A DNA stretch of 41,616 nucleotides from a virus. Its lineage: Duplodnaviria > Caudoviricetes. The DNA lies in the IMG/VR virus record IMGVR_UViG_3300042347_000083, positions 1 to 41,616 of that record; one strand, 5' to 3'. Positions 688 to 41,510 of this stretch are shown here, one piece after another (position 1 is the stretch's first letter; every line of letters starts with the position of its first letter). The translations under genes and the position numbers were made by a program. The notes under the pieces are model-generated. The model made no database searches. It saw only the letters and a list, made by a program, of their open reading frames with translations, and was not told the origin of the DNA.

Positions 688-1811
688 AGGTATTTTTTGT
701 AGTTAGCTAGGAGTCCGTTTGATTTGGAATACCACCCTTCTCCGGTGTATACATCCATCACATCCGCGAAATACTTCTCATACATTGGTGCTACATTCTC
801 TAGGATGAAGTTATTACCGAACGCCCAGCAATCGTAGGGTTCGATCATATTAATGCTGTTGATCGCTTCTACGTAGTCACCCATCGTGCGGCAGCGGAAT
901 CCTGTTACACCATGTAGGTTATTCTCTGTGAAGCTACCCCAGTCGGAGGTGATTGTTGGAGTCCCAGAGAGTAGGTTTTCTACTTGGACACCACCGAATG
1001 GTTCTACATACTGGCTAGGGACAAAGGATGCTTTGGCTTTCGACATGAGCCTCTTCCTAGTAGGAACGTCAGCGTAGCCTACATACTCTACATGGTCTGG
1101 AAGTTGATAACCTTCCTCTTTTTGGCCTGCGATGACTAGCTTTACTCCTGCCCGTTTAGTGGCATCTATAGCAATATCTACACCTTTTCCGCTATAAACC
1201 CTACCCAGATAGAGGAAGTAATCTTCTTTCTGGTCACAGAAGTCGAAGTCTTCCTTATCGAAGTAGTTTGGGATGACTACAGCATAGTTATCTTGCTGGC
1301 AATTCCCTACTGCCTGCATCCCGCAGTAGGCATGGTAGATTGCGTAGGATTCAAATACCTTCCACCTAGCCCAGTGTCCACCAGCATACCCAATGCCCGG
1401 CTCAACTGTTATTAGGTCTGGATGTGCGTCACAGATCGGTCTTACTCCGCTACCCCAGAAGGGTAGGATGAAGTCATGCTTGAGCTTCCTCTTACCTACT
1501 TCTTCGATAGCATTCTTGTAGAACGTCTGGTAGGCATGGTCATTCGTGTTGAACTTGAAGAATGTCTTCCTCCAGTCATGGCTACCATAGCTCTTATTGA
1601 AGTCATCGTTCGTTAATACTGTGACGTGTTCCGTGCATGGGAGTTGACTATCCTCATGCCCGTAGTGGATTACTTCATGGCCGCGCTCGGTCATCATCTT
1701 CCCGAACTTCACCACCTTTTGGGTGTAAGCACAGGCGTTGAATTCTTTGCTTGTCACTGTGTGAGGCAAGCCAAGGATGTGGAATCTGAATTTATCGTTT
1801 CCGATACTCAT
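684..1811 (-). CDS. GT-B (GT4-like) glycosyltransferase
   Basis: GHEVIHYG, VIPNYFD, LYLGRVYSGKGVDIAI and EPFGGVQVENLLSGTPTITSDWG (E-x7-E motif); start reassigned to ATG 1811 (MSIGNDK), which overlaps the upstream stop as ATGA. Confidence 0.85.
   Translation of the reverse strand: MSIGNDKFRFHILGLPHTVTSKEFNACAYTQKVVKFGKMMTERGHEVIHYGHEDSQLPCTEHVTVLTNDDFNKSYGSHDWRKTFFKFNTNDHAYQTFYKNAIEEVGKRKLKHDFILPFWGSGVRPICDAHPDLITVEPGIGYAGGHWARWKVFESYAIYHAYCGMQAVGNCQQDNYAVVIPNYFDKEDFDFCDQKEDYFLYLGRVYSGKGVDIAIDATKRAGVKLVIAGQKEEGYQLPDHVEYVGYADVPTRKRLMSKAKASFVPSQYVEPFGGVQVENLLSGTPTITSDWGSFTENNLHGVTGFRCRTMGDYVEAINSINMIEPYDCWAFGNNFILENVAPMYEKYFADVMDVYTGEGWYSKSNGLLANYKKYL
1792..1807. repeat. 16-bp palindrome, copy 1
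   Basis: TTATCGTTTCCGATAC, just inside the glycosyltransferase start. Confidence 0.85.
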
Positions 1812-2047
1812 AGGTTTTTTAGTATTTTCTTTGCCCAATCTGGGGTGTCTTCTGTGACTGATCCAGTCCAGACAACATTTGGTTCTGTTTTCTTTTTCTT
1901 TAGGTAGTTCCGGTTGGATAGGACAATAATAACCTCGTTGGTTGTGAATCTGAATCCACACTCACAAACCCTCCTCCGCATTACTGTCTTATTGATCTTC
2001 CTGCTGTTAACTACTGACGTTACTTTACCGCATTCTGGACAGGTCAT
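1808..2047 (-). CDS. NrdR-type zinc-ribbon DNA-binding protein without ATP-cone
   Basis: MTCPECG...VVNSR...RRRVCECGFRFTTNE matches the NrdR N-terminal pattern CPxC...DSR...RRRRECxxCxxRFTTxE. Confidence 0.75.
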   Translation of the reverse strand: MTCPECGKVTSVVNSRKINKTVMRRRVCECGFRFTTNEVIIVLSNRNYLKKKKTEPNVVWTGSVTEDTPDWAKKILKNL

Positions 2048-2211
2048 TTCTTATCAAATACAGGCATGAAAGTAGCCTTCTTCATTCCGCGTTTATCGAA
2101 GAACTTCTCGCAGGCTTTGACGATCTCCTTGGAGTTAAGTGGGTATTTCCACCCTACCCGTCCATCGTCATTCGATAGGTTCTCCGTGTTATTCTTTCCG
2201 TTGATTTTCAT
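2044..2211 (-). CDS. Hypothetical protein, 55 aa
   Basis: Manual ORF MKINGKNNTENLSNDDGRVGWKYP...FDKK; ATGA overlaps at both ends. Confidence 0.6.
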   Translation of the reverse strand: MKINGKNNTENLSNDDGRVGWKYPLNSKEIVKACEKFFDKRGMKKATFMPVFDKK

Positions 2212-2450
2212 TTCATTGACTTGCTACCACGGCAACGCCATTTTTTACGTGACAGGTTATTTGGTGAGTTAGGATCACTCTTCCAGTCACCCTTAATCTT
2301 CGCAGAACGAGCGCAATACGCATCGCCCTTGGCAGTTCCGGGGCGAATACGATCACCACCATCTTTAGCCTTACCAGCCTGCCCATACCTCACAGTCTTT
2401 GTCCTGCCAGTCTTGGCGTTCTTGACTACCTTTGTGAATCGCTTTTCCAT
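2208..2450 (-). CDS. Small basic phage protein
   Basis: MEKRFTKVVK...PGTAKGDAYCARS...DPNSPNNLSRKKWRC; start reassigned to ATG 2450. Confidence 0.7.
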   Translation of the reverse strand: MEKRFTKVVKNAKTGRTKTVRYGQAGKAKDGGDRIRPGTAKGDAYCARSAKIKGDWKSDPNSPNNLSRKKWRCRGSKSMK

Positions 2451-2451
2451 A

Positions 2452-2598
2452 TTATTTCTTCTTTGCTGTTTTCTTGGATTGAATGAACGCTTTAGCGGTA
2501 GGGGCGCCTTTCGAGCCAACCTTCCTCATCTTCTCGCCACTGCCAGCTTCGATGCGTTTTTTCTTTTGGTTAATGTTGTAGTAAAGTCCTTTATTCAT
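2452..2598 (-). CDS. Small Lys-rich protein, 48 aa
   Basis: Manual ORF MNKGLYYNINQKKKRIEAGSGEKMRKVGSKGAPTAKAFIQSKKTAKKK fills the gap between neighbours. Confidence 0.7.
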   Translation of the reverse strand: MNKGLYYNINQKKKRIEAGSGEKMRKVGSKGAPTAKAFIQSKKTAKKK

Positions 2599-2600
2599 AA

Positions 2601-2789
2601 TTACTTTTTCTTTTTGGACATTCCAGCTTGTGAAAGTGCAATCGCCACGGCTTGGGCGCGGCTTTTAGCCATAGGTGCTTTTTTCGGGCCTTTAGGGTTC
2701 ACTCCAGCGTGGAGCTTTCCAGCCTTGTATTCCCGCATGACTTTAGCCACCTTCGCGGCCTTACCTGCTTTAGTTGTTGGTTTTTTCAT
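2601..2789 (-). CDS. Small basic protein, DUF6496-like
   Basis: KVMREYKAGKLH...KSRAQAVAIALSQAG pattern. Confidence 0.65.
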   Translation of the reverse strand: MKKPTTKAGKAAKVAKVMREYKAGKLHAGVNPKGPKKAPMAKSRAQAVAIALSQAGMSKKKK

Positions 2790-3523: not shown

Positions 3524-3714
3524 GGCAACAAGCTATCTACATCTTGTAGTTCTGTCAATACTTTTGTTTCAGAGAAGTATTCATGGTATATCTTCATTCC
3601 TTCACTCCAGTAATTATCTGCGATACAATATCTTTCTTTGTCGAAAGACTCCCAGATCGTCAGGGCAGCGTCCATCAGCCTAGATGCTTTTGCGAATGCT
3701 TGGTCAGTTGTCAT
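3520..3714 (-). CDS. Hypothetical protein
   Basis: ORF track; overlaps both neighbours. Confidence 0.6.
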   Translation of the reverse strand: MTTDQAFAKASRLMDAALTIWESFDKERYCIADNYWSEGMKIYHEYFSETKVLTELQDVDSLLP

Positions 3715-4946
3715 CAGTATACCTCCTCTAGTTTGGAAATGTCACCACGCATGATGACTTCCGTTGTGTAGTTCCTCGCGCCACGGCGGTTCTTCTTGAT
3801 TGTTAACATACTCTTTGTCTTTAGGTGTTCGATATACACAACTTGGTCAGAGTGCATACCGATTGCCCGTGATTCGCGCAGTCTTCCCTCGTCGTTTAAC
3901 TGGGAAGCCGTCAGCATAATCGAATTATTCTTGAGTGCAGATACCTTTAACCGCCTTGCTATCTCTGAAATCTGCCCTTCGCGGCTGTCTGAACCATCAA
4001 AAGAGATGATTTGCAGGTAATCTACAACAATCACATCTGCCCGTTTTTCGCCTGTATATCGTGCGATATTGGCCTCAATTTCGGTGATATCGGCTATTCC
4101 GTCTACGATTTCAATGGGTAACTGGTGTAACTTGAGGAGTGCCGCGCTGATCGCCTTCAGTTCTCCTTGGTTTACATTCTTGTAATCCTCTGGTTCTCGG
4201 ATCGGGTAGCCTGCCATGTTGCAAGCCATGCGGGTTAGGATGTCTTTAGCCTTCATCTCTAGGGAAAAGAATAGGACTGACTTTCCATCCAGTAGATTTG
4301 CGAGTGCAGATTGGACTAGGTAGATGGATTTACCACCACCCGTCTCTGAAGCCACAGTCATCATCTCTCCTTTGTGCATCCCACCCTTGAGCGCACGATC
4401 TACTTTTGTCAGTCCAGTAGTAAAGCATTCGTTTACCGCTTTACCTTCCATCTCATCAATGATCTCGATGATGATATCCTTAACTGGTTTTACTTTGACT
4501 GTCCGATCCTCGGCGCACTTCATTATCGTTTCCGATAACGAGCGAAGGTCAGCCTTGCCAATCCGCAGGTCATTCTCGGTTTTCTCAATGATAGAGATGG
4601 CATCGCGGTATCCCTTCATCTTGTGAAGATTCTTCCGATAGTCATCGGCCATGTCTTGGCACACCTTACCGGATGCGATCTTCATCGTGCATAAAGTGTC
4701 GTGGACAGATTCTTCACCGCCGACTTCTTCTAGCTGTCCGGTTGCTTCAAGCTCTGCAATCGCGGAGAATTGACAGCAAGAGCCTGTCCGCTGGTGAACC
4801 CCTTGGAGGGCATTAAAGATGATTCTGTGGGCAGGTAGCGCGAAATAATCACTATCCCACGTTTGCTGGGAAAGGATGTTTCGATCGGTTGCTATCAGCG
4901 ACAATGCTGCCGCTTCGCTCTTGTGTGCTATTGGGACTTTTTTCAT
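3714..4946 (-). CDS. dnaB: DnaB-like replicative helicase
   Basis: Walker A ASETGGGKS, FFSLEM, IVVDYLQ, ASQLN, LRESRAIGMHSD, KNRRG. Confidence 0.92.
   Translation of the reverse strand: MKKVPIAHKSEAAALSLIATDRNILSQQTWDSDYFALPAHRIIFNALQGVHQRTGSCCQFSAIAELEATGQLEEVGGEESVHDTLCTMKIASGKVCQDMADDYRKNLHKMKGYRDAISIIEKTENDLRIGKADLRSLSETIMKCAEDRTVKVKPVKDIIIEIIDEMEGKAVNECFTTGLTKVDRALKGGMHKGEMMTVASETGGGKSIYLVQSALANLLDGKSVLFFSLEMKAKDILTRMACNMAGYPIREPEDYKNVNQGELKAISAALLKLHQLPIEIVDGIADITEIEANIARYTGEKRADVIVVDYLQIISFDGSDSREGQISEIARRLKVSALKNNSIMLTASQLNDEGRLRESRAIGMHSDQVVYIEHLKTKSMLTIKKNRRGARNYTTEVIMRGDISKLEEVY
4523..4538. repeat. 16-bp palindrome, copy 2
   Basis: TTATCGTTTCCGATAA, inside dnaB. Confidence 0.9.
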
Positions 4947-4950
4947 AAGG

Positions 4951-5655
4951 TTAAAAATTGGCGAAACGTTTTTCTTCGGGTTTAGTGCGGTTAATCCATC
5001 CAGAGAGGAATTGCTGTGTGAACTGGCGGTTTGGTTTCGCCAGTATCCAAGTCTTCGCTTTCTGAACCTCGCGTTCGACGTCCTTGTCGGGGTTAAGACG
5101 AATCAGTTCGTTGATGAAAGCATCGTCTGCGAGTTTCGGTTTTCGTTTTGTTTTCGGTTTTATGGAAATCAAATCAATGGATTTTAAAACTGTTTGCTGT
5201 GATGGTTCTATTTTCGGTTCCTTATGATGGTTCATTATAGGGAGACTAACCGGGGTTACCCCCTCCACCCCCTGCAACGGGTTACCCCCTCCCCCACTAA
5301 CACGGGTTACCCCCTCAACTGACCTAATTCTGCTTGGTGCTATAACCTGTTGAATGACATCTCGACTGATTTCATCGCTACCAATCTTATCAACAATGAT
5401 GGTGTAAAGATTCGATGTTTGCCTTCCGAAATGATCCTCTCGCTCATCTCTGGTAACTACTCCGACCTCAATCAAAGAATTCAAATACTTCTTCAAGATA
5501 GGTTCCGAGACATTCGCTTTTTCTGCTAGTTTCCGAATCGACGGCCAACAACTAGCATCGTCATTGCAGGAATCGGCTAGGGCAAGAAGAACCAATCTTG
5601 CATTTCCTTGAGTCCTGCTTTTCTCAAAGACCTCCGACATTATTCGGACGCTCAT
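4951..5655 (-). CDS. Replication initiator (lambda O-like, N-terminal HTH)
   Basis: RLVLLALAD...CWPSIRKLAEKANVSE...SNLY HTH; internal iterons; adjacent to DnaB; start reassigned to ATG 5655. Confidence 0.8.
   Translation of the reverse strand: MSVRIMSEVFEKSRTQGNARLVLLALADSCNDDASCWPSIRKLAEKANVSEPILKKYLNSLIEVGVVTRDEREDHFGRQTSNLYTIIVDKIGSDEISRDVIQQVIAPSRIRSVEGVTRVSGGGGNPLQGVEGVTPVSLPIMNHHKEPKIEPSQQTVLKSIDLISIKPKTKRKPKLADDAFINELIRLNPDKDVEREVQKAKTWILAKPNRQFTQQFLSGWINRTKPEEKRFANF
5253..5316. repeat. Three iterons GGGTTACCCCCTC, putative replication origin
   Basis: Exact 13-mers at 5253, 5279 and 5304 inside the initiator gene. Confidence 0.75.
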
Positions 5656-6096: not shown

Positions 6097-6112
6097 TTAT
6101 CGGAACCGATAA
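6097..6112. repeat. 16-bp palindrome, copy 3
   Basis: TTATCGGAACCGATAA, between a stop codon and a -35 box. Confidence 0.9.
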
Positions 6113-6481
6113 TTACTCTAGTTCAATCGTCTCAATCACGCCAGCAGACCAGTCTTCTAGTTTGTCGGTCAGAACCTCCCAGATGTCATCGGCATCACTT
6201 TTGTTTTTGCATTTGAAGATCGAGCGGCGTTCTCCGACACCTTCACCAGCGATAATGAAATCACACTTGATGACAGTATTGGAGTCATGGCCGCAAGCGA
6301 CAATGATACAGGTATTGTTTGGCTTGAGAGCCATCATCAGAATGCCCTCATCATTTTCGTATGTAGCAATGAAAGGTTTTTCTAGCGCGGTGGCTAAAGA
6401 CATATTTGTGACAAGGACAGTCTTTCTAACAGTATCCAGAAGTTCTTCTGCAAATGTATTGTTGTTGTTTGTGTTATCCAT
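6113..6481 (-). CDS. Hypothetical acidic protein
   Basis: ORF track; ATG 6481 (MDNTNNN) preferred because it lies just downstream of a predicted -10. Confidence 0.65.
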   Translation of the reverse strand: MDNTNNNNTFAEELLDTVRKTVLVTNMSLATALEKPFIATYENDEGILMMALKPNNTCIIVACGHDSNTVIKCDFIIAGEGVGERRSIFKCKNKSDADDIWEVLTDKLEDWSAGVIETIELE

Positions 6482-6489
6482 AAGAGATA

Positions 6490-6535
6490 AGGCTATCAAA
6501 AATGCCTTGACTTGTCAATAGTTCTGGTTTAATTT
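6490..6535. promoter_or_regulatory. Back-to-back divergent sigma70 promoters
   Basis: Plus: TTGACT(6507)-17-TAATTT(6530). Minus: TTGACA(6518-6513)-17-TAGCCT(6495-6490). Confidence 0.65.
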
Positions 6536-6542: not shown

Positions 6543-6950
6543 ATGAAACATCCATTAGAAGAAGCCTACGATAGTTGCATGATGGCTTACGAGCAATCAC
6601 GCACTGTTCGTTCTATTGGACGGAGGACTTTCGCCCAGCAACTGCGTGAGACTCGCAGGAAACTGAACATGACTGTCAGGGAGCTGGGCGAAAGGATCGG
6701 AGTGACTGGATCGCTCATCAACCAGATTGAAGTAAACTCCAAGAGTATTCTGAAAAAAGAACAAGTAGAAAAGATTATCGAACTATGCGTGTCTTCCTTG
6801 AAATCGAAGAGGGGAAATACAAGCTCCGAGTCAGTCCATACGCCGCAGAAACCCCAAGTCCCATGCACCAGCGAGGGAAGCCATTCCCCGACAGCTACAG
6901 TCCAGAATACGAAAGCATGGAGTTGGCCACCATCGGACTTCAAGAACTAA
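6543..6950 (+). CDS. XRE-family HTH transcriptional regulator
   Basis: LRETRRKLNMTVRELGERIGVTGSLINQIE. Confidence 0.8.
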   Translation: MKHPLEEAYDSCMMAYEQSRTVRSIGRRTFAQQLRETRRKLNMTVRELGERIGVTGSLINQIEVNSKSILKKEQVEKIIELCVSSLKSKRGNTSSESVHTPQKPQVPCTSEGSHSPTATVQNTKAWSWPPSDFKN

Positions 6951-7492: not shown

Positions 7493-9346
7493 TTACCAAT
7501 CTCCATTATCATCTGATGAGTAAGCATCGTCATCAGAGAACACTTCAACTGGCTTTTCATCCCGCGCCCAGAATCTGTTAGTAGGAACAACTTTATCGTT
7601 TCCGATAAATACTAGCCCATATCTTCGCGCCATCTCTAGGCAGTAAAGATAGCTATCCGCCAAGTCGGGCGAGAACCCAGTTCTTCCCTTAAAGTCATCT
7701 TTAGTCTCTACAGAAATCTTCTTGGACTTAATCGTGTATCGGCGCAAGCAAAGTTCCCTCGCAAGATCAGAGCCACCATCTACACCATAGAGAACTCGAC
7801 TCTTGAATCCATGATAGGCTGAATACCAATATTCAGATACCAACCTATCATAAACATCCTTACATGGGCGTTTATCAACCTCGGCGGCGATACGCTCGGT
7901 AGGTTTACCCATAGAAGAGATGAGGGCGATTGCAGAGCCAGTAGAGTCAAATCGTAGCCACTCACGAATAATAGCCTGCCCGACTCGTCCACCATCACCG
8001 GAAACGTCCATTCCGAAGTTGGATGGTTTTACTCCAGTCGACCTGCAATAATTAACAACTTCAGTAGCAAGCTGGATTTCAAACTCGGCAGCAGCATTTG
8101 CGGACAACTGAATGACCTTCTGACTTTCCAGATACATGACACGATTGCGAGTCCCGCGAACGTATCCTAGCTTGGCGATGGTAAGAACGCATCGGTCTCC
8201 ACCAACTGTAAACGCGGTATCGAACCCTGCTACCTTGGTGAATCCTTCAGAATCCCATAGTGGTTCTTCGTTGGTATTAGCATTACGGATCAGATCGGCG
8301 GTGAGAATTGTTTGAGCGAATCCAGACTTCGGCCACCAGCCAATAGCGTTACGAACATAGTCGATAGCGTTCTCATCTCCGTAACATTGTTTAAGCATGA
8401 TCTCCTGCTTCTTCCGATCCATAAGGAACGGGAATGGAGATGGTTCATTGGCAGGCGCGGCGAAGTTTGGAGAGCGCATACCATTGTAAAATAAGCATAC
8501 GCCAGTTCCAGTTTCCCACTTGTCCATCTCTGGATTAACAGAATCAAAGTTAGAACAATCTTTAGGCATAGCCCAACGAGTGTGAGGGTTGTCACCAGCA
8601 GACGGGTTTCCGATACCTATAAACGTCACATCATTGTTAGCGGATAAGTTAACCTTGGCGGTAATCGCGCCTAGCTCCATTTCTGGCAACTCATCAAGGG
8701 CAAGCCTGATCCGGTCATTCTTACGACCACGGGTGGTATCAATAGCCTTCTGGCCTTCATTACCTGACTGGAATGCGAGAGCCTTGATAGCATTACGATA
8801 GTCTTTATCCTCATCGTTGGATGCGCCACCCCAAACAATCATGTGGCGATAGTCAATTAGCTTACCAAACTGAACGGCGGCACACTTCCAGAGTTTAGAG
8901 ATGATACCCCAGATACGATCCTCGGACGCACCGAGAGTTGTAGTAGCAACCCAAGAAGAAGTGCAGTGCGGGGCGGCGCACCAATCAAGATAGACCCATA
9001 ATCCAACAGGAAAAGATTTACCCATCGAAGCCGCGCCAGCTAAACAAATATCTGTATTGTTGCAAAGCTCCTCAAGAGTTCTCAACAACTGGGTATTGGT
9101 ATATCCACGATTGTAGATAGAAACTTCAGTCGGCCATTGGAGTTTTACGGCATTAATAAAATGTTCGTGAGGTGAAAGTAATTTAAAGTCACCGATATTG
9201 ATATTATGTTTAACACAATACTCTTTCCCGTATTCCCCTCTACTGATAGCGTAGCAATACAACTCAATACCAAGGTCATCCATGTTTTCTGGGAATTGAA
9301 TTCCATATCTACGAATTCCTTTGTTTGAAGAAAAAGCTCTTGACAT
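7493..9346 (-). CDS. terL: Terminase large subunit
   Basis: Walker A AGAASMGKS, Walker B LALDE, motif III GIGNP, RNase H-like AGFDTA and C-terminal SPDLADS. Confidence 0.88.
   Translation of the reverse strand: MSRAFSSNKGIRRYGIQFPENMDDLGIELYCYAISRGEYGKEYCVKHNINIGDFKLLSPHEHFINAVKLQWPTEVSIYNRGYTNTQLLRTLEELCNNTDICLAGAASMGKSFPVGLWVYLDWCAAPHCTSSWVATTTLGASEDRIWGIISKLWKCAAVQFGKLIDYRHMIVWGGASNDEDKDYRNAIKALAFQSGNEGQKAIDTTRGRKNDRIRLALDELPEMELGAITAKVNLSANNDVTFIGIGNPSAGDNPHTRWAMPKDCSNFDSVNPEMDKWETGTGVCLFYNGMRSPNFAAPANEPSPFPFLMDRKKQEIMLKQCYGDENAIDYVRNAIGWWPKSGFAQTILTADLIRNANTNEEPLWDSEGFTKVAGFDTAFTVGGDRCVLTIAKLGYVRGTRNRVMYLESQKVIQLSANAAAEFEIQLATEVVNYCRSTGVKPSNFGMDVSGDGGRVGQAIIREWLRFDSTGSAIALISSMGKPTERIAAEVDKRPCKDVYDRLVSEYWYSAYHGFKSRVLYGVDGGSDLARELCLRRYTIKSKKISVETKDDFKGRTGFSPDLADSYLYCLEMARRYGLVFIGNDKVVPTNRFWARDEKPVEVFSDDDAYSSDDNGDW
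7593..7608. repeat. 16-bp palindrome, copy 4
   Basis: TTATCGTTTCCGATAA, inside terL. Confidence 0.9.
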
Positions 9347-9367
9347 ATCAATAAGAAAATATATTTT
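9340..9367 (+). promoter_or_regulatory. Possible promoter of the virion operon
   Basis: TTGACA-16-TATTTT, overlapping the terL start codon. Confidence 0.4.
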
Positions 9368-9382
9368 CCGCGCAAAGGCAAG

Positions 9383-9760
9383 ATGAAACTTAAAAACAAA
9401 AATCTCGCACCAGTCGGTGGGTGGTATTGGAAGTATGAAATCAAGCGCGATAAGTTGACGTTCCCTGCGATTGTTTACGGAAGCACATTCAATAGCCTAA
9501 TGCAGAATATCCAGAAGGATTACAATTCTAATGGAATTCCAGTCCCCACGAATATTGAGCAGATGGTCGAGGATCAAATCTGCCAGCGTCAGCCAAGCGA
9601 GCGTTGTTGGTATAGCGATGGCATTGGAGATAAGATCGCGCAAGCCATCCATACTGTAGCCGCAACGGCAGACAAAGTTTTAGGAACAAAACTTGAACAT
9701 AAAGCTCGCGGATGTTCTTCTTGCAACCGCCGAAGAAATGCGCTTAACTCGTTATCGTAA
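9383..9760 (+). CDS. Hypothetical Cys-motif protein
   Basis: GIGDKIA...GCSSCNRRRNALN motif. Confidence 0.7.
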   Translation: MKLKNKNLAPVGGWYWKYEIKRDKLTFPAIVYGSTFNSLMQNIQKDYNSNGIPVPTNIEQMVEDQICQRQPSERCWYSDGIGDKIAQAIHTVAATADKVLGTKLEHKARGCSSCNRRRNALNSLS

Positions 9761-9767
9761 ACGATAA
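9752..9767. repeat. 16-bp palindrome, copy 5
   Basis: TTATCGTAAACGATAA, 5 nt before the portal ATG. Confidence 0.9.
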
Positions 9768-14693: not shown

Positions 14694-14740
14694 AAAAATA
14701 TCGCTTGACATAATAAATAGGAGATTGCAATGTGGCGCAC

Positions 14741-14948
14741 AAGAGATAGCCGAAATTATCGTTTACGATAAAATTAGGGATTCAGCCGCACTCTGGCTGG
14801 CGAGTTTTCGACCTCGCATGAAAAACGATTTCTGGACAGAATAAACTCTGGGTTGAGTCCAGCAGAGGAAACCAAGCACTCGCTTGCTATTCCTCTGTGG
14901 TATAGTTTAGCAGTGCAAAACTAAACTAAACAAAAATCAAATAAATCA
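14741..14948 (+). ncRNA. Multi-hairpin leader RNA of the capsid gene
   Basis: Five tandem hairpins at 14783-14928 plus the palindrome at 14756; upstream TTGACA(14705)-17-CAATGT. Confidence 0.5.
14756..14771. repeat. 16-bp palindrome, copy 6
   Basis: TTATCGTTTACGATAA, in the capsid leader. Confidence 0.9.
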
Positions 14949-17356: not shown

Positions 17357-17372
17357 TTATCGTAAACGATAA
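17357..17372. repeat. 16-bp palindrome, copy 7
   Basis: TTATCGTAAACGATAA, intergenic. Confidence 0.9.
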
Positions 17373-20735: not shown

Positions 20736-20751
20736 TTATCGTAAACGATAA
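20736..20751. repeat. 16-bp palindrome, copy 8
   Basis: TTATCGTAAACGATAA, intergenic. Confidence 0.9.
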
Positions 20752-21893: not shown

Positions 21894-21915
21894 AAACACT
21901 TGACAGAAACTTTAA

Positions 21916-21931
21916 CTATCGTTAACGATAA
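21916..21931. repeat. 16-bp palindrome, copy 9
   Basis: CTATCGTTAACGATAA, intergenic. Confidence 0.85.
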
Positions 21932-24919: not shown

Positions 24920-26937
24920 TGCCAGCAGAAGGATCAGTCTTTGATGGATTCACAAGTATCATCGCGCAAGACGCAGATACTCATCCATCGTATTTACCAG
25001 AGTCTGTAGTATCAGAGTCGGTAAATAGGACATTCCGAGGCGGCATTAACCGAACAAGGCCAAGCATTCGGAATATTCCGATTATGGCTGGAGATGGAGA
25101 AAGCCAGACTATCGTTAACGATATTCTTGGTGGCAGCTTCCAAGGTGCGTATCCATATCGTTCTACAAACTTGAGAACGAGCGATGGCATCCTGCTATCG
25201 GTATCTGGCATTATCTACTTTCTGAAGATCGTAAACAATCGTGCATTTGCCTACAAACTTATTGAAGGCAACGATCCGGGCATGATGCACACATGGTTCG
25301 TGCAAGCTGAAGATCGGGCGTATATCCAAAATGGCTACCAAAATGCCATAGCTTGGGACGGAGTATTGGGAACGCTGACTGCAAGTGAAATCCAAAATGG
25401 AGACTACTGCGAGATTGTTTCGCTTGGAGTTGGAACTACAACTACAGACTTCACCTTGATCGGCGCACCATCCAATACAGTTGGAGTTAAGTTCACAGCA
25501 GTCATCACAGACACTCAAAGGGGAACTGGGACAGGAACAGTTAAACTGCCTGCCTATCGACTAAACCCATACTTGGCAAAGATGCCAATTGGAACAATCA
25601 TGGAATATGCTTTCGGGCGAGTCTTTGTTTCTGACAGGTTCAACCAAATCTACGCATCTGACATCATCTATGGTGGTGGATTTACTGACACCAAGAATAC
25701 GGAGAACTTCACAGAGATTGGATACTGGGCAGAAGGTGGGGCTTTCTCGACTCCAGCCATGATGGGGAATATCACAGGGATGAAGGCGATGCCAGAGCTT
25801 GGATACAACCTTCGCGGCCAAGGTCAGCTAGTAGTCCTTACAGGAAACGGAGCATTCTCAATGGATGTCTCTCTACCAAGGTCACAATGGAACACATCGA
25901 ACATCCAGCGTATCTCACTCCTTGGGCGCGGATGCACCAGCCCTAATCTTGCATTGGTAAACTCCGAACTTTGGTTCAGATCACACGATGGTTGGGCGTT
26001 CTATTCCAATACCCAATCCGAGTTCAATAGATATTTCTCACTCCGCAAACTATCTAGGGATGTGAACAAGTGGGTATCAAATGATACTCCGTGGATGAAG
26101 CAATTCGCTTCTACTATCTTTTTCAACAACTACCTCATCAATACTGTCTCTCCACAGACCTATCGAGCAGAAGGGGTAGAGGGGCTGAATAGGTATCATC
26201 GTGGTATGGTTGTTCTTGACCTAGACCAATCCTCAACTCCCGCTCCAGACGCACAGCTTAATTTTCGCTGGAATGGTATCTGGACAGGCATCAGACCAAC
26301 TCAACTCCTGACTGCATTGATCCAAGGTGAGAAGCGCGGATTTGGATTCTCGTTTGATAAAGACAACAAGAATCGACTTTACGAGTTCACAACATCTCAA
26401 GGAGACGATTACGGGCCGAATGGAACTAGGCAGATTGAATCATTCTTCACTACTGGCAGGTATGACTTCAACCGAAGCGGGGCTACCAACAAGTTCCTCC
26501 GCAAAAAGATTACTGGTGGAGAAATGTGGATGAGTGAGATTAAGGGTGAGGTTGAAAGCGCAGTCGAGTTCCGCGCAGATAGTAACCCTTGCTGGTCAGA
26601 ACTAAAAGTGCCTACGACTTATGGGTGCGATCCATGCTCTCCTAAAGTAACTGAATGCTTTCCACAAAGGGGCGGTAATCGCTACAAACGCTACAAGTTC
26701 AACACGCCTGACCCAAGCGAGTGCAATGACTTGGCAGGCATCCCAGCGGTGGAAGGATCAGAATTCCAAATCAGAATCAACCTAACCGGAGCAGCTACAG
26801 TTGATCGAGTAAGATTGATGGCAAACATCAAGAACAACGATGACTCTCCAGTTGGTGACTGCCCAGAAGAAAATCAAGAGTGTGAACCATTTTTGTGTTG
26901 CCAAGAGAAATATTGGAACTACAATATCGTGAACTAA
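24919..26937 (+). CDS. Tail nozzle / tubular protein B-like
   Basis: 672 aa, beta-rich, propeller-like, position in the podovirus tail module. Confidence 0.55.
   Translation: MPAEGSVFDGFTSIIAQDADTHPSYLPESVVSESVNRTFRGGINRTRPSIRNIPIMAGDGESQTIVNDILGGSFQGAYPYRSTNLRTSDGILLSVSGIIYFLKIVNNRAFAYKLIEGNDPGMMHTWFVQAEDRAYIQNGYQNAIAWDGVLGTLTASEIQNGDYCEIVSLGVGTTTTDFTLIGAPSNTVGVKFTAVITDTQRGTGTGTVKLPAYRLNPYLAKMPIGTIMEYAFGRVFVSDRFNQIYASDIIYGGGFTDTKNTENFTEIGYWAEGGAFSTPAMMGNITGMKAMPELGYNLRGQGQLVVLTGNGAFSMDVSLPRSQWNTSNIQRISLLGRGCTSPNLALVNSELWFRSHDGWAFYSNTQSEFNRYFSLRKLSRDVNKWVSNDTPWMKQFASTIFFNNYLINTVSPQTYRAEGVEGLNRYHRGMVVLDLDQSSTPAPDAQLNFRWNGIWTGIRPTQLLTALIQGEKRGFGFSFDKDNKNRLYEFTTSQGDDYGPNGTRQIESFFTTGRYDFNRSGATNKFLRKKITGGEMWMSEIKGEVESAVEFRADSNPCWSELKVPTTYGCDPCSPKVTECFPQRGGNRYKRYKFNTPDPSECNDLAGIPAVEGSEFQIRINLTGAATVDRVRLMANIKNNDDSPVGDCPEENQECEPFLCCQEKYWNYNIVN
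25109..25124. repeat. 16-bp palindrome, copy 10
   Basis: CTATCGTTAACGATAT, inside the nozzle gene. Confidence 0.8.
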
Positions 26938-27638: not shown

Positions 27639-27654
27639 TTATCGGAAACGATAA
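27639..27654. repeat. 16-bp palindrome, copy 11
   Basis: TTATCGGAAACGATAA, intergenic. Confidence 0.9.
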
Positions 27655-31680: not shown

Positions 31681-34600
31681 ATGGTTGATGAATTTGAACT
31701 CGCATTTACGCAATTAAACACTCAACCAAGAGATGAGTTTGATATAGCATTTGACGAACTACAACTTGCTGGACTAGCACCGGACGTAAGGCAGGAGCAG
31801 GAAAGAATCAACGAACTCAAGCGAGTCCCAGAGATGATTAACCGGACTGGCGGTCTTCCTGTAGGCGGAGAGCCTATGGTTGGTGGCCCAGATGTCTTGG
31901 ATATGGAGCCGGGGCAAACCAAAACCTTCATGGAAGATGAAGAAGGCAAGCCTGTAGAGGTTCGCCGCGCCCAAGCAATTGATATCGGAGGAAAGACAAT
32001 CCAAGAACCTATCAGCCCAGATGGGATGACGCTGGACTTCCGTGGGAATCTGATCAAAGAAAAGACCAAAGAACTCCAGTCTACTAGCGGTCTTCCATTC
32101 TCTGAATACATGAGCAAGTCCAATGCTCTACGTTCAGAGTTGTCCAAACTACAGCAGGATCAGCAGAAGCATGAGGCTAATCAATTAGACTTCTTGAGTA
32201 GATTGATTACAGGAAAGAAGGGCGTATCTGTAGATATAGAGACAGGGCTTGGAGAGGAAAGAGTAACTGGAGCAGAAGGTAAAATCACAACCGTTCCAAT
32301 CCGAACAAGACAGGGCGCGGCAGTCCAAGCTATCGGTGATCAGCGCGAATTCATAGATAACATTATCGGAAACGATAAATTCTTGGACTACCTAAAGACC
32401 AAGGGAATCGACACTCCGGGCATGATGTCGCGGATGGCTGGTCAGTATCTTGGAGCAGAAGAAGCACCAGCAAGAATCGAAGAACTCAAGAGGAATGTCG
32501 ATGTAAGGAAGCTCGCGGAGGAATGGGCAATGACCTCGCCCGACTTCATGGATACTGCTACGGATATCTTCAAGCGAGCATGGGATGGATACGCTGGAGC
32601 AGTTGGGTCTGGAACTATTGGCCCGATTGGTATGCTATTGAAGGAAGCTGGTTTTGAGCAGTCGGGGCAATCTCTAATCGAGGCCGCTGAATATGCAGAC
32701 CAAATGAGACTGAAAGGTCAAGACCCAAGAAAGGTTGGGGTATTAGCGCAATTCGGAAGGGATGTATCTGGTGGATTAGGTTTCACTGGCGCAGCTATTA
32801 CTGTCGGTGCGCTTGGAAACGCCGCACGTGCATCGCTTGGATTGAACTCTGCGAGGGCAATCAGTCTCTTCCAGAAGGGAACTACACTTACATTTGGTGG
32901 ACTTAACTCTGCATGGGCTGGATACTCTGAAGCAAAAGCAGATGGAGCCACTGAAGACCAAGCCAAACAAGCGGCACTCTTCTCTGCTCTAACTCAAGCA
33001 CCATTGGAACTTGTATCTCCATTGCAAAAGTGGATAGGCAGATTTGATTCAGCGCAGCAGGATAAAATTTACAAAGGTCTAAACAGGGCCGCGCAAGCTG
33101 TAATCGAAGGTGCTGAAGAAGCATTGTTCAACGAAATGCCACAGCAGATCGCAGGCAACCTCGTTAAGAAGTATGTCTACGATCCGAACCAAGACATCTT
33201 TGAAGGGACTGCATACGCTGGCGGGGTAGGTGGAGCGGCAGGTATTCTTACATCCATCTTTACCCAGATGATTTCTGGAAAGAAAGCAAAGAACAAAGCC
33301 TTGCAGGGTGATGAAGAAGGATCAGAAGAAACCGATATCGAATCCAAGGCAGATGAGGTTGCCGACCAACTAGCCCCAGATGAAGTATCTGACCTAGCCC
33401 AGCAGATGACTGCTGTTAGTGGCGAGATTGACAATCTCAAGCAAGAGATTGCTGACGACGAGATGGGACTACAGGGAATCGAAAAAACCGCGCCAGCATA
33501 CCAAGCCGCCGAACTGGCATTGAACGAAAAGAAAGCCAACCTCGCGCAATTACAGACCCAATTTGATAAGCTCTCCGCAGGCCCAGCAGAGGTTAAGGAA
33601 GCACCAGCGGCTGGACAAGTAAAGCCATCCGCTACAAAAGAAGAAGCTCAAGCCAAGATCGAGGAACTCAACAAAGAGTTCGATGCTTTGGATGAGAACG
33701 ACCAAGCAGGTATTGATAGGGTAAACCAAGCCATCTTCGCGGAGCAGAATAAGATCGCTGAACTCACAGCTATTGAACAAGGCATCGATCCGCAAGGCAC
33801 AACTCCTACCCGTCAGCCGGGGCTACCAGAGTCTGGCCGCAGATCGCCATTCGGAACCTTCTATCCAGAACGCCCAGTCCTACAAGCCTTCATGTCTGCT
33901 ACAGACAAGGTGATTGGAAAGATTCAAGCTACAGGTAAACGGGCGCAGAAGCTGAAGAACGCTATCCGAACAGCAGTGTCTAATAATGCTGGCTTCTTGG
34001 CAGGCACAGACACTCAAGTTATCTCCTCCGAGGAATACAATAAGCTGACTGGGAATAAACTCTCCGCTGATAGTGGAACATACAAAGCAGTCTTCTTTGG
34101 AGGTAAGAAGTATCTGGTTATCCCAGATGTAAACGTCCTCCAGCAAGTAGCGACCCAAGGTGAGCAACGGGCGGCAAGCAGAGATGCCGCACTGGATCAA
34201 GAGTCACGGGCAGCATCCAAGAAACTGGAAGAGGAGATGATCCATCTCTCCATGTTCCAAGGCATCCAAGACGAGTATAAGGCTCTCAAGAAACCTAAAC
34301 TCACAGAGCAGGAATACATCGTAAAGCGAATCTCTGACATAGCAAAAGAAGTAAAGCGCACGAATCCTAACGCATTGCCGGGGGTATCCAACGCATATCT
34401 AAACGATAAAACAAAACTCCTTGATGATCTTACTTTCTCCCAAGAGTTCATGCGAATGGTTGCCCAGCGTGTAAGGACGGGGCAGATCACCGAGGACTTG
34501 AATGCTATCAGAGCAGCGGAGAGAGAAACCTTCTCTGATAAAGACAAAGGAATAATCAGAGCATGGAAGGACTCACTCCTCAATGCTCTCCAGTTCCTCC

Positions 34601-37600
34601 GCACTTCCATCGCTCGCTACCTTGGTAAGGGAACCTCGACCAAGGAAGTAGAGAAGATGCTGAACACGATGAATACCATCTTGGATGAGTATGGCATCGT
34701 GAAGGGTGAAGCTAACTACGAGTTTAAAGATTACTCTGCTGCTCAACCTAAAGGTGAACTGAAACCTATTTCAACTGAAGATGAAAGGTTTATTGAAGAA
34801 AGAAAAAATGCTTCAAAACAAAAACGCCAAGAAAAAAATTTGAAGTTTGGAGAATATGGCGAAGATGTTAATAAACTTGAAAATAAGTGGGAGAAATCTG
34901 GCGTTGAATTAATATTATTCCCATCTGAACAAAATATAGAAATAACAATAATTAGAGTTCCAGAAAATGTTCGTGGAAAAGGAACTGGTTCATCAGTAAT
35001 AAACGATGTTAAAGCGTTGGCGGCAAAATATTCCAAATCAATAGTATTAAAATCTGAAGACATTGATGGAATAGGAAAAAATCCTGATGAGTTCTATCGT
35101 AAAAATGGATTTATTGAAACAGGAGATGGGAAATTCATTTATACTACAAAAGAAGCTACCCCAACTGTTAAGGAATCCTTGACAGTTGAACCAGCAGTAT
35201 CGGAAACGATAACTCCAGCAATCGAAGCGAAGGCTGGTGAAACTCCAACTCAACAATACGCACAAACATTCGAGTTGTTTAATAGGTATACCGAGCCAAT
35301 GGGTGTCCAGACAATTAGAGTCGAAGCAACTTCTGTTGATGAGGCTAGGAACTTGATTAAAAGGACAGAAGACTACAGAAGGATTAAGTCTAGGTATGCT
35401 AAAGTATTTGAGCGTGGTGAGCCAATCGTAGTTCCAAGACCCGGAGAGCCACCGATCATCGCCCGTGCAGGTGTAACTCCAGAAGGTGAACCAATGTCCA
35501 AGAAGTCTGAATCTGCAATGAAGCGGATCAGTAATGGAATTGTGAGTGACTTGAATAAGCTGGTGGAATCCTTGAAGCCAAAAGATAACAAGGCACTGAC
35601 GGAGTATAAGTCCAGAACAACACAGAAAGGTAAGACATATCCAAGACCTTTGATTTCTCCGTATTCGGTGGCCGCGAATCTATTCACATCGAATGCATTC
35701 ACCGCTGGAACGAATGCACTAAACAAAATCTTTCAAGGCAATCCAGACGTAGACTTCTTTAGAGTAGCTCAAGACATGGGCAGCATGGATGAGGCAGCAA
35801 TCCAGCGAGCATACAGCATCAACTCCGAAGAGCAGTTGGTTCTTTCTCAACTGATGTATAAGATGATGCCAACATTCATTGGTCAAGTTATGGATTCTAG
35901 TATGCCATTGTCTGCCCGTGAAGCGTTTGCATTGGATGCAAGGAATGTAGAAGCTAACCTCGCAAGGAAAGTAACTCTATCGCTTCGTGAGTCTGGGCGC
36001 AAAACCCAATACGCAAATACATTGAGGAATATCGGTGGCGCGGGAATGGCAATCCAGTCATACAAGTCCAGCATCATTGATGCGATGGGAAACATCTATG
36101 CTCTGACCAAAGCTCCATTTGAAAACATCGCAAATGCAATCCGAGGAGACCGCAGGAAGTCAGTAGATAAAGTAGCCAACATCCAGAGTGTATTCCGCAA
36201 GGCGGTATCACTCATTAAGCAATCCCAACTGAATCCAGAGAAGGTTCGCCAATCCATCCGCGCCGAGGTTGGCAAGAGAAAGAACGAAAGCACCCGCAAA
36301 ATCCTATTGGATTTCAGTGCGGGACTCTTCGATACCAAGGAAGACAAGTATGCCAACATGATAGTTGACCAGACTGTTCAGAACATCCTTGCGATTGGGA
36401 TGAACAGGAAGGGCTTCTCGATTGAGAATGTCAGCAACTTCATGTATCAGTCCTTCGCTACTGCCGCGAAGCAGATGGGAGTCCAGATGGCTGGAGTTCC
36501 CAAGCAGAAGGCAGGAAAGCGGAGCGGGAAATACTTGGAGATGGTTAAGGCGGTTATCGGAAACGATAATGCTTACAAGGCATTCTTGGCCGACCTATCG
36601 AACCGGATGGCAGAAAAGTATCAGAGCAAGGAAGCATTCAACGAGGACTTCGGCGACTTGTTCAAATCCCTCCGTTCAAACGAATGGTCGGACAGCTTGA
36701 GAACTCAAGCGATCAAGGACGCTACTGATGCTATCAACTACAAGTTCGCTGATCTATTCCAATACCTTGGAGAGAAGAGGAACGCTACCCAAGCTGGAGT
36801 GCGTGAGCATATCCGAGCAGAGCTTCGCGGAACTGGCGCATCAAACGAACTGATCGATAAGTTTATCCAAGATGCAGATGCCTATCTCAACCAAGAAACC
36901 AACAGGATTCTGACAGAAAAGCTAGGATTCACAGTCAACGAAGAGACTGGCAAGGTAACGCCAAAGCCTCTGATGAGTAAGAAGATTAAAGAGGAAGCCG
37001 AGGCGCAGTTCAAGAACATCAAGAATCTGAAGGACATTACCAAGCTATCCCTGACCGACGAAGGTAACTTCAAGGAAGGACTAATCAGCAGGATCATCAC
37101 AGAGATTGGAATGTCCAAGGAGAATGCGACTGAACTAGCAGACTTGATCTCGTCGGAGATGGATAAGGCACTCATCGCCCAGCGGAGCGAGAACCTGACA
37201 ACAGCCTTGAAGAAGGCTGAAGAAGTCTTAACGAACAATAAGATCAAGAGGAAGACTAACCAGAGGACATTACTCCAGCGTCTTATCCAGATGGCGAACA
37301 TGGGGATGCTGGACTCCGAGATGGTCTACGAGGCATTCCGCCAGACCCATGACTTTGATAAGAACTATCTGCCATACGATGCTGAATTCGTAAACACGAT
37401 CCGTCAATGGGGTGACAGGATAAGCCTGCTCCCAGAAGGCGTGATCCGAAGCATTGAGGAAGAGAAGATGGGTAGAGCTTTACTTGAGAAGAGTAAGTTT
37501 ACTAGTGGGGATATCCTATCCAGCTACTGGTATTGGAGTCTCTTATCACAGATCGGAACTCCAGCATTGAACATTGTTTCTGGAGTTAACAACCTTATAG

Positions 37601-39438: not shown

Positions 39439-39515
39439 GCAGTCGGGTCTCTGATTGCTATTCGTGTTATTCATAAGGTTGACGCACCTCGGAGAAATCT
39501 GGGGTGCGTTTTCTT
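39439..39515 (+). ncRNA. Candidate small RNA, about 75 nt
   Basis: TTGACT(39404)-16-TAATGT promoter, 5' hairpin, single-stranded linker, terminator. Confidence 0.45.
39481..39515 (+). terminator. Intrinsic terminator
   Basis: GACGCACCTCGGA-GAAA-TCTGGGGTGCGTT followed by TTCTT. Confidence 0.75.
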
Positions 39516-39516: not shown

Positions 39517-39532
39517 TTATCGGAAACGATAA
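39517..39532. repeat. 16-bp palindrome, copy 15
   Basis: TTATCGGAAACGATAA, between terminator and promoter. Confidence 0.9.
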
Positions 39533-39561: not shown

Positions 39562-39589
39562 TTGACGATTATCGGTAGAATGATAGGCT
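39562..39589 (+). promoter_or_regulatory. Sigma70-type promoter
   Basis: TTGACG-16-TAGGCT with extended TG, 7 nt before GTG 39597. Confidence 0.5.
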
Positions 39590-39596
39590 TTGCGGA

Positions 39597-39845
39597 GTGG
39601 ACAACAACAACCCTGTCCATATAAAACCAATGAAAGAAACACCAAAAGTAAAAGTAGAAGCAGTAGAAAAAACAGTAGTTCAGAACATCGATCTTCAGCG
39701 CGAGATTTTTCTCCGCTTGGTCTCATCGGCGGCAGCAGACGGACGATTCCTTCTAGGCAATCTTCCCAACGCACAAGCAGTGGTCAAGCAAGGCGACCAT
39801 CTTCGCGGAGTATCTGAACTGCTTGCTAACTGCTTCGAGAAATGA
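39597..39845 (+). CDS. Hypothetical protein
   Basis: ORF track; ATGA overlap with the next gene. Confidence 0.6.
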   Translation: MDNNNPVHIKPMKETPKVKVEAVEKTVVQNIDLQREIFLRLVSSAAADGRFLLGNLPNAQAVVKQGDHLRGVSELLANCFEK

Positions 39846-40714
39846 CCATCACAAATAACTTCAATCTGCCAGCTCCCATGTATCGGGCGTTGGCACACGA
39901 TGGGTATACACCCGGCACGAAGAAGGCAGACATCTCGGTGACTACCTTAATCGGGCCACCGAAGATCAGCCAACTCAAGAAACGCTACTCCGACGAGATC
40001 GTAGAAGACGCATCCGACAGGGTGTGGGCATTGCTCGGTCAGTCTGTGCATAAGGTTCTTGAGCTAGCTGGAGGAGAGGAAGAGCTTACTGAAAAGCGTC
40101 TCTACTTGGATATCAATGACTGGACGCTGACAGGACAGACTGACCTCTACGAGACTGGCAACAAGACTATCTCTGACTTCAAGGTAACATCGGTCTTCTC
40201 CTTCCTGCTCGGCGGCAAGTCTGAATGGGAAGCACAGATCAACCTCAACGCCATGCTCTGGAGAAGCTATGGATATGAAGTAAAGAAAGGTCAGATCGTC
40301 GCCATCCTCCGTGACTGGCAGGCAAGCAAGGCAGAGTTTGACAAAGAGTATCCTCAATGTGCAGTCCACATTGTTGACATTCCTCTTTGGGATAACGAAG
40401 AGTGCATCGCCTACGCTACGGAACGGATCAAACTCCACCAAGCGGCGGCTGAAATGCCAGACGATACGATCCCGTGCTGTGATCCAAAGGAACGCTGGGC
40501 TAAACCAGATACCTTTGCCATCAAGAAGGACGGGAACAAACGAGCAGCCAAAGTGTGCGAGACCTTGGAGGAAGCAGAGAACCTGCTACCTACCTACGGG
40601 CCGAAGCACAGCATAGAGAAACGAAGCGGTGGGGATATGCGATGCGAGCGTTATTGCTCCGTAGCCCCCTTCTGCCACTACTACAAATCAACATACAACA
40701 AACCAAATGAGTAA
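39842..40714 (+). CDS. PD-(D/E)XK exonuclease (Cas4/RecB-like)
   Basis: GQSVH, LTGQTDLY, ISDFKVT, QINLNA and C-terminal Cys cluster RCERYCSVAPFC. Confidence 0.75.
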   Translation: MTITNNFNLPAPMYRALAHDGYTPGTKKADISVTTLIGPPKISQLKKRYSDEIVEDASDRVWALLGQSVHKVLELAGGEEELTEKRLYLDINDWTLTGQTDLYETGNKTISDFKVTSVFSFLLGGKSEWEAQINLNAMLWRSYGYEVKKGQIVAILRDWQASKAEFDKEYPQCAVHIVDIPLWDNEECIAYATERIKLHQAAAEMPDDTIPCCDPKERWAKPDTFAIKKDGNKRAAKVCETLEEAENLLPTYGPKHSIEKRSGGDMRCERYCSVAPFCHYYKSTYNKPNE

Positions 40715-41510
40715 CCAACTAGACGGAATCGAACAGAAAGACATCATCAAACGAGTGACTGGCAAGGTCACTAAATTGTGGGAAGCCAAGACATTTACTG
40801 GCCCGAAGGGTGAGTTTGTCATCCAAGGCGGAGAGATTGAGATCGACGGGCAGACCTACGGCCTCAAGTTCTTCAACAACACACAGGAACAATCTATCAA
40901 GGGCAATGTAGTCACGCTCTCGTCAGTCCGTGGAAAGCATGGTCTGACCGGAGTGTCCTTGGAGCATGAGTCCTACGAAGGTAAGAACGGGAAGGTAGAT
41001 CGTGACATCATCAAGGTCACTGCTACTGGAAAGATTGAGTTCGACCAGCCCAGCGAAGAGCCTGCCCGTGTAGCAAAATCCGCTACACCTATCGTAACCG
41101 ATAATCCGGAGAGGGCGATTGATGAGATCGTAGACTTGCACCGCTTCATCAATAGCTTGGTGCGCCACACCTACAAAGATGTGGAGGACGAAGAGACCCT
41201 TCGCTCCTATGTATCGTCGGTCTTCATCGAAGCAAACCGCAAGGGAATCCGATACGCCAAGTCTTCTCCCAAGGTAGAGGAACCCAAAGAGGAACCGAAG
41301 GAAGAACTCGATCCAGCGGACTGGGCATCAGCCATTGTCCCATCTGGATCACAGAAGGGCAAGAAGCTCGCCGAGATTGGCAAGCCTGCACTCACTAAAC
41401 TCTATGAGTATTACTTGGAGAAGGGGTTCACTACTCCATTCGCCAAGTGCGTAGAGCAAGCCGCCGAAGACCTTCAACTCGATAGCCCAGCAGACGATAT
41501 TCCATACTGA
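40707..41510 (+). CDS. Single-stranded DNA-binding protein-like (OB fold)
   Basis: VTGKVTKLWEAKTFTG...GEIE...LKFF OB-like N-terminus and acidic DDIPY tail. Confidence 0.6.
   Translation: MSNQLDGIEQKDIIKRVTGKVTKLWEAKTFTGPKGEFVIQGGEIEIDGQTYGLKFFNNTQEQSIKGNVVTLSSVRGKHGLTGVSLEHESYEGKNGKVDRDIIKVTATGKIEFDQPSEEPARVAKSATPIVTDNPERAIDEIVDLHRFINSLVRHTYKDVEDEETLRSYVSSVFIEANRKGIRYAKSSPKVEEPKEEPKEELDPADWASAIVPSGSQKGKKLAEIGKPALTKLYEYYLEKGFTTPFAKCVEQAAEDLQLDSPADDIPY
41089..41104. repeat. 16-bp palindrome, copy 16
   Basis: CTATCGTAACCGATAA, inside the SSB-like gene. Confidence 0.85.

Follow-up and report, generated by a model that had tools for sequence, protein, structure and literature searches.

A genome-wide palindrome array in an uncultured phage clade and a candidate ParB-like protein that may read it

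What maintains sixteen copies of one short palindrome along a phage genome, half of them inside genes, and which protein reads them? This question is raised by a tailed-phage virus record (IMG/VR IMGVR_UViG_3300042347_000083; Caudoviricetes), of which we analyzed positions 1 to 41,616, the whole stretch being referred to here as the window. The window is a single 41.6-kb record, 79% complete, and is a fragment from a clade of ~53-kb uncultured phages whose complete relatives measure 52 to 58 kb. It carries genes for a terminase, an SU10-like portal, tail fibers and spikes, a 2580-aa protein, a DnaB helicase, and a replication initiator. None of 50,697 deposited phage records matched its capsid or terminase, and no cultured relative was found with the capsid, the terminase, or the core of the protein that we consider below as the reader of the palindromes. 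An initial annotation, made from the sequence alone, had reported the array and interpreted it as a protein-binding grid for silencing, compaction, partition, packaging or ejection, or protection from host defense.

The palindrome array and its conservation

All 16 copies of the core TATCG-N4-CGATA were found in the window at the positions given by the initial annotation. Dinucleotide shuffles (n = 100) contained a mean of 0.03 copies and at most 1, in line with the annotated chance expectation of about 0.04. The longer form proposed there, TTATCG-KWWM-CGATAA, is exact at 11 of the 16 sites; four deviate at one outer base and one deviates at both. When the spacer was varied from 0 to 11, only a length of 4 gave TATCG..CGATA pairs in the window, which also has a single core with one mismatch, at 11959. 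Using 264 sites from 13 genomes, we refined the consensus to D-TTATCG-K-W-W-M-CGATAA-H. The center of the spacer is AA or TT at 152 of these sites and TA at 89, but AT at only 4.

The window is 96.5% coding. Eight sites lie within coding sequences, where they are read in two frames, one spans a stop codon, and the other seven fall between genes; gene junctions hold 8 of the 16. When codons were resampled synonymously 1,000 times, intragenic copies numbered 0.31 on average and never exceeded 3, compared to the 8 observed. There is about one site per 2.6 kb. Gaps between neighboring sites range from 1180 to 5004 bp, matching the 1.2 to 5 kb reported initially, and are more even than expected by chance (coefficient of variation [CV] = 0.44, P = 0.0003). 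The evenness persisted under a junction-aware null model in which nine sites were assigned to actual gene junctions and the other seven were placed randomly (CV, P = 0.00025; largest gap, P = 0.008; smallest gap, P = 0.0001).

The array extends throughout the clade. Among loci selected by their capsid gene and thus chosen without reference to the motif, 80 of 80 contained it, with 388 sites in 1.11 Mb. The complete relatives (n = 10), which were found by motif scan, have 16 to 32 sites each. Spacing was more even than random at P < 0.05 in 11 of 14 related genomes, which are kin and not independent trials, and the largest gaps across 12 clade genomes measured 4.7 to 7.2 kb. In the combined set of capsid-selected loci and motif-selected genomes, intragenic sites are locked in place. 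The site within the terminase large subunit gene (site 4, 7593..7608, read as FIGND) is intact in 48 of 48 distinct sequences, that within gene 24919-26937 (site 10, 25109..25124, IVND) in 19 of 19, that within the DnaB-like helicase gene (site 2, 4523..4538, LSETI) in 17 of 17 distinct relatives, and that within gene 40707-41510 (site 16, 41089..41104, IVTD) in 9 of 12. At the terminase site, the isoleucine codon is always ATC, a constancy seen at none of 22 other conserved isoleucine positions, and the spacer tolerates an Asn-to-Thr replacement. The gene for the 2580-aa protein (31681-39423) contains site 12 (32363..32378, IGND), site 13 (35197..35212, VSETI), and site 14 (36554..36569, IGND). 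In 11 of 12 genomes, its counterparts have one to three sites at differing offsets; the one remaining record lacks an intact giant open reading frame. The array is real, strongly selected, and clade-wide.

What is conserved within the sites also bears on how they are read. At one orthologous site, the spacer was TTAC in 19 sequences, TAAC in 19, GAAC in 3, GTTC in 3, and TTAA in 1. Because spacer orientation flips at orthologous sites, the signal appears to be read as DNA, which agrees with the initial view that selection acts on the nucleic acid and not on the protein. Invariant arms, an unoriented spacer, and an AA/TT or TA center together point to a symmetric protein on duplex DNA instead of an RNA loop.

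None of the sites is assigned to a strand. Site 5 (9752..9767) lies across the stop of gene 9383-9760, with the portal start 6 bp on. Gene junctions contain site 7 (17357..17372), site 8 (20736..20751), site 9 (21916..21931), and site 11 (27639..27654), of which site 9 would be intragenic if the TTG at 21900 were the start codon. Site 1 (1792..1807) covers the start codon region of a glycosyltransferase gene (684-1808; MSIGND). This gene is 71 to 74% identical to genes of large Synechococcus phages and 75% identical to that of a 68-kb sister clade; it has recently been exchanged, yet it bears a site over its start. Since the gene is so mobile, its match to cyanophage genes cannot be used to name a host. 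The giant gene is hypervariable and largely nonhomologous between relatives, and residues 1089-1145 of its product have a weak GNAT-like match (E = 0.001, below the cutoff). Only 36 bp separate the terminase large subunit gene (7493-9383), which is encoded on the minus strand, from the divergently oriented portal operon; G001 and G053 have the same orientation.

A candidate reader and its variation with the motif

The initial annotation named no binding protein. The best candidate that we found is a ParB-family phage protein at the cut end of the window. Only its first 20 codons are present (41555..41616, plus strand), and 18 of the 20 residues match the start of a full-length ortholog, P0001 (L061:10480-11457). 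P0001 is 325 aa long, compared to 318 to 341 aa in clade relatives, and the gene was found in all 10 complete relatives, where it sits in an exonuclease operon and not among virion genes. The structural model of P0001 (pLDDT, a per-residue confidence score, of 87) comprises a helical N-terminal domain, a 31-residue helix, a helix-turn-helix (HTH) core, and a small beta C-terminal domain. The long helix (residues 148-178) precedes helices 182-191 and 196-208. The modeled core (residues 164-267) resembled the DNA-binding domain of ParB in complex with parS (chain 6s6h; Z = 8.5, root-mean-square deviation of 3.2, 96 residues aligned), followed by Spo0J (Z = 7.4), KorB (Z = 6.5 to 6.7), and SopB (Z = 6.3), as well as the DNA-binding domain of VirB. 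A Foldseek search with P0001 also ranked ParB and Noc first, with a probability of 0.98 for the Noc DNA-binding domain (6y93) and E values of 0.1 to 0.4.

Sequence comparison led to a second family. The HTH core of P0001 matches the LmbU family (NCBIfam NF038070) at E = 7e-7, with 29.3 bits against a curated cutoff of 125. An LmbU match at E ≤ 0.1 was obtained for 37 of 65 members of the reader family, and none was obtained at that threshold for P0002, P0138, and P0176. No family in Pfam or PHROGs was assigned to P0001 when 65 family members were run, and its neighbors in a protein atlas that do have a Pfam family belong to DUF1016_N, DUF6192, and DUF3102 clusters. A ParB/Srx CTPase domain was not detected on P0001: no Pfam family was found, residues 1-95 were modeled as helical, and the ParB matches span only residues 161-270. 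When modeled alone (pLDDT of 85), the C-terminal beta domain yielded no fold match at Z ≥ 5, and a sequence search of the PDB with P0002 returned only coiled-coil noise. At 50% clustering, the family comprises 191 representatives with varied recognition helices. On the strength of the model, the candidate is predicted to be a protein with a ParB/LmbU-type DNA-binding domain that lacks the CTPase domain.

Its recognition helix and the palindrome vary jointly across four lineages. The first two are the 53-kb clade and G014, a distant phage recovered by motif scan whose terminase is only ~25% identical and whose genome has 9 copies of TATCG-N4-CGATA; both have this motif together with the helix SY[SP]TVS. 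In the third lineage, the 68-kb sister clade, the helix is SYS[HA]VS.W, and TATCG-N4-CGATA occurs once in 582 kb (44 loci). These genomes instead contain 12 to 21 copies each of a 17-bp palindrome, TWMTTGTT-N-AACAAKWA, which is absent from the window and from G001. The fourth lineage (G055, 72 kb) pairs the helix SYSTLSAYAR with 33 evenly spaced sites of the form TT[AC]T[TC]G-N4-C[AG]A[GT]AA (P = 0.003). The same association was seen in 62 newly fetched loci out of 80 selected by their exonuclease gene. Loci with the helix Y[SP]TVS..R (12 of 62) contained 77 TATCG-N4 sites and 0 TTGTT-N-AACAA sites, and those with YS[HA]VS.W (19 of 62) contained 1 and 50, respectively. The 31 loci with neither helix contained 0 and 10, some of them probably being fragments of the 68-kb clade without the reader gene. 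The motifs of the 53-kb and 68-kb clades are mutually exclusive, even though genes common to the two are 72 to 82% identical. In addition, where the spacer is 5 bp long, the C-terminal region of the reader is different, which amounts to a single event; the remaining C-terminal domains align at only 15 to 18%.

The reader gene is one of few that G014 has in common with the 53-kb clade. Out of 43 clade families, only the portal, the terminase, an HNH protein, gene 27660, and the reader are common to all four grid-bearing lineages. We rejected an XRE-type HTH protein (6543-6950) and the putative small terminase as readers because no homolog of either was detected in G014, whose motif is the same. 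Taken together, the protein encoded from position 41555 is probably the reader of the palindromes.

Repeated palindromes were also observed elsewhere in the material. G054 has a second palindrome, TCCGT-N5-ACGGA, in 6 copies compared to 0.03 expected. An unrelated viral fragment with 55% GC (L211 of G033, positions 3570-5620) has six copies of TTTTATCGG-NN-CCGATAAAA clustered in 2 kb next to a terminase-like gene; this 5.7-kb record has no homolog of the reader. L399 and L402 (G057 and G058) contain 8 to 9 copies of GGCAACG-N6-CGTTGCC, plus GGAG-N7-CTCC, and no ParB-like gene at E ≤ 0.01. Lastly, a 242-aa early protein (L061:17891-18619), which few relatives carry, looks by eye like a second ParB-like helical domain and has no support from Pfam or PHROGs.

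What the array may do

Among the explanations that we considered, we favor, with slightly less than even confidence, one in which the palindromes are evenly spaced loading points from which a ParB-like protein coats the genome, with added control of nearby promoters. The 16 palindromes would be bound as double-stranded DNA by the phage-encoded ParB/LmbU-type protein, with one dimer per site and each recognition helix reading a TTATCG half. Bound protein may then spread a few kilobases to either side, as does ParT, a clamp that works without cytidine triphosphate (CTP), so that gaps of at most 5 to 7 kb would leave no part of the genome uncovered. The phage chromosome could be coated and organized in this way without CTP or ParA. 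Sites beside sigma-70-type promoters, including that of the reader's own operon, may also tune transcription. If the identity of the reader is correct, genome-wide coating is marginally the more probable main purpose.

The chief competitor, which we regard as a serious possibility of lower standing, invokes the same phage protein as a global transcription regulator or roadblock that stays at its sites, in the manner of KorB, stoperators, or LmbU and VirB; even spacing would be a by-product of having one site per transcription unit. Three window sites lie near TTGAC boxes. Site 3 (6097..6112), directly after gene 6113-6499, is 9 bp upstream of a leftward TTGACA (6087-6082). Site 15 (39517..39532) lies between a terminator-like hairpin (~39482-39515) and a TTGACG (39562-39567), 29 bp upstream of the latter, which is the putative promoter of the operon holding the candidate reader gene. 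Site 6 (14756..14771), in the leader of the putative major capsid gene, is 45 bp downstream of a TTGACA (14705-14710). In relatives, several promoters have sites clustered 8 to 33 bp upstream of them, and in G001 there is overlap with a -10 region. Together with the half of all window sites found at gene junctions, these placements fit a regulator, and sites near TTGAC boxes likely do have a regulatory role. LmbU itself is described as a homodimeric transcription regulator whose HTH lies centrally (PMC6510168). In contrast, the eight sites in coding sequences, three of them within one 7.7-kb gene, count against regulation alone, and the position relative to promoters is inconsistent, being upstream, overlapping, or downstream. 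Nor is there an evident prophage to silence, since a tyrosine integrase was found in none of 12 near-complete genomes of the window's group and sister groups (serine recombinases were not searched). Stoperators, moreover, are described as asymmetric and oriented (PMC4351075), unlike the present sites. Most sites are far from promoters, and to account for their even spacing, a mechanism acting at a distance is needed. The ParT-like outline of the candidate and the gap sizes, with largest gaps of 4.7 to 7.2 kb being about what ParT-like spreading would bridge, therefore lead us to favor a loading grid with promoter control over a static regulator.

Several observations weigh against that preference. 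In the fold comparison, Raf1 was interleaved among the ParB hits (Z = 6.9 to 7.3), and the tool warns that such Z values can be generic for helical folds; Foldseek returned no match for P0001 at E ≤ 0.001. The covariation amounts to four lineages with kin loci within each, and because of this kinship the same joint variation could be shown by any factor specific to a clade, a host protein among them. More distant LmbU-like genes occur in G059 and six cellular genomes that have no grid. In the 68-kb clade, 3 of 5 genomes lacked significantly even spacing (gaps of up to 18.6 kb under the strict pattern), as did G014 (which has a 15-kb gap), G015, and G021. When the gap left by removing each site was calculated, it was not significantly larger for intragenic sites than for intergenic sites (p = 0.19). 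Helical phasing relative to promoters was not significant when each distance was counted once (p = 0.42), which also counts against the static regulator. As for the model clamp, ParT (SCP2.04c) has no sequence match to the reader (probability of 0.3%) and is described as not condensing DNA in vitro (PMC12260392).

Rather than a phage protein, the sites could recruit a host nucleoid, partition, or regulatory protein, with motifs differing as the hosts of the lineages differ. Three motif variants share the half-site TT[AC]T[CT]G, as might be expected of orthologous host proteins. However, scans of cellular genomes lower this reading. In 3 of 64 parts of a genome collection, single matches were scattered over many phyla, with 79 of the 80 listed loci having one match each. 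The initial annotation had suggested looking for the motif in candidate host chromosomes. In one candidate phylum, that of G060, which we take to be Verrucomicrobiota from Tichowtungia and whose role as host phylum is only a guess, 43 of 301 genomes had matches with at most 4 each, fewer than the 7 reached by a control. Distant LmbU-like genes were present in 6 of 401 genomes of one candidate phylum, in elements without a grid. The mutually exclusive motifs of the 53-kb and 68-kb clades, despite their gene identity, also speak against a host protein, which we consider unlikely.

Less likely again are sites that guide packaging or ejection through the small terminase subunit, the HNH protein, or an internal virion protein. 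The grid spans the whole genome, and the portal, terminase, and HNH genes are also common to the four lineages; however, the putative small terminase and the XRE-type HTH protein lack detectable homologs in the other three lineages, including G014 with its identical motif, and the operon position of the candidate reader gene is away from the virion genes. Finally, it is most improbable that the element is an RNA or single-stranded DNA hairpin with a tetraloop, akin to boxB: GAAA is the commonest spacer, and in some relatives long hairpins ahead of early genes are capped by the motif (z = -4.0 to -5.8), but both spacer orientations occur at one orthologous site, the arms are invariant and do not covary, and Rfam gave 0 matches at the gathering score in the window and L061. 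The hairpins belong to repeated leaders of ~90 nt before early genes in L061 (14050-16220), G006, and G008, a region missing from the window. In these leaders, the motif caps a long imperfect hairpin, and a conserved A-rich stretch separates the hairpin from the start codon; G004 lacks them.

Of the grid proposed initially, the genome-wide extent and selection at the DNA level stand. Among its five suggested functions, two are disfavored: classical partition, given that ParA (PF13614) was found in 0 of the same 12 genomes (control, 14 of 14) and the reader model lacks a CTPase domain, and prophage silencing, given that no tyrosine integrase was found there. A bolder extension of the loading grid, which we regard as rather doubtful, is that a broad group of lytic phages uses a ParB DNA-binding domain to make self-specific chromatin. 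A CTP-free clamp with a private, even grid of addresses would coat only its own genome, shield it from nucleases, silencers, and DNA translocases of the host or of phages, and distinguish it from the DNA of the host or of co-infecting phages. Clades could acquire different addresses as the recognition helix changes and, perhaps, as C-terminal domains are swapped (spacer of 4 or 5 bp).

Phages of Cluster O have been described as carrying unexplained palindrome arrays genome-wide (PMC4351075), and an array of this type is now tied to a candidate reader. With that candidate and natural helix and motif variants in four lineages, the question becomes testable. If the protein does spread, CTP-independent ParB-like clamps would be known not only from plasmid partition but also from the organization or protection of the genome of a lytic phage. 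The variants would, in addition, provide small, orthogonal pairs of protein and site.

Comparison with known systems

We found no account of the motif, or of its pairing with the reader, in the open-licence PMC and bioRxiv literature. Among described features, the closest is the repeat of Cluster O mycobacteriophages, a 17-bp dyad of which Corndog has 34 invariant, unoriented copies of unexplained function (PMC4351075). These phages have a ParB-like protein (Corndog gp90) and no integrase, and that report proposes no specific reader. The likeness lies in more than 30 invariant-armed palindromes spread genome-wide, in short intergenic gaps as well as within genes, with an A/T-rich, unoriented spacer; the present array likewise consists of tens of invariant-armed, unoriented palindromes in both settings. 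The sequence and the host group differ, and the covariation of helix and motif across lineages is a feature of the present array. Corndog gp90 would be a natural candidate reader for that phage's 34 dyad repeats, although that report does not single it out. The protein (L451:10425-11933) is annotated with a ParB-like nuclease domain and did not match the profile of the reader family.

KorB operators of plasmid RK2 are palindromic and dispersed both near and far from promoters. The analogy with KorB and parS drawn in the initial annotation fits at the level of the modeled protein fold, since the reader model has the ParB-type DNA-binding fold that KorB shares, in addition to dispersed palindromic sites. 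It differs from KorB in having no CTPase domain in the model and in coming from phages in which no ParA was found. KorB is a CTP-dependent sliding clamp that works with KorA (PMC11790492).

The modeled candidate shares its outline with ParT of plasmid SCP2. ParT is a ParB-like protein with no CTPase domain and with a long helix alpha2 before its M domain; it loads at an 18-bp palindrome within its own gene and slides without nucleotide (PMC12260392). Its peak in chromatin immunoprecipitation is ~5 kb wide, and 45 of 112 ParT homologs have a neighboring ParA (PMC12260392). As modeled, the candidate reader resembles ParT in lacking the CTPase fold and in having a long helix directly before the HTH; in both systems the palindrome may be intragenic, and the spreading range of ParT (~5 kb) is near the largest gaps in the phage clade. 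In contrast, ParT uses ParA and one parS (PMC12260392), whereas the phages have 16 to 33 sites and no ParA was found.

LmbU is related through the distant match over the HTH core. Its score, however, is far under the family cutoff, and the reader has extra N- and C-terminal domains and a genome-wide grid in a phage context, as opposed to the cluster promoters of LmbU. Cluster A stoperators belong to temperate phages. Those of L5 and Bxb1 resemble the present array in having many sites per genome and in favoring short intergenic gaps, but they are asymmetric and oriented with transcription (PMC4351075), unlike the symmetric, unoriented sites described here. With regard to ParABS, the ParB-type HTH is present in the model, and the N-terminal CTPase domain and a cognate ParA were not found. 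The candidate reader and its grid fall outside ParABS, LmbU, and the stoperators, and would work like a ParB-family protein on dispersed operators.

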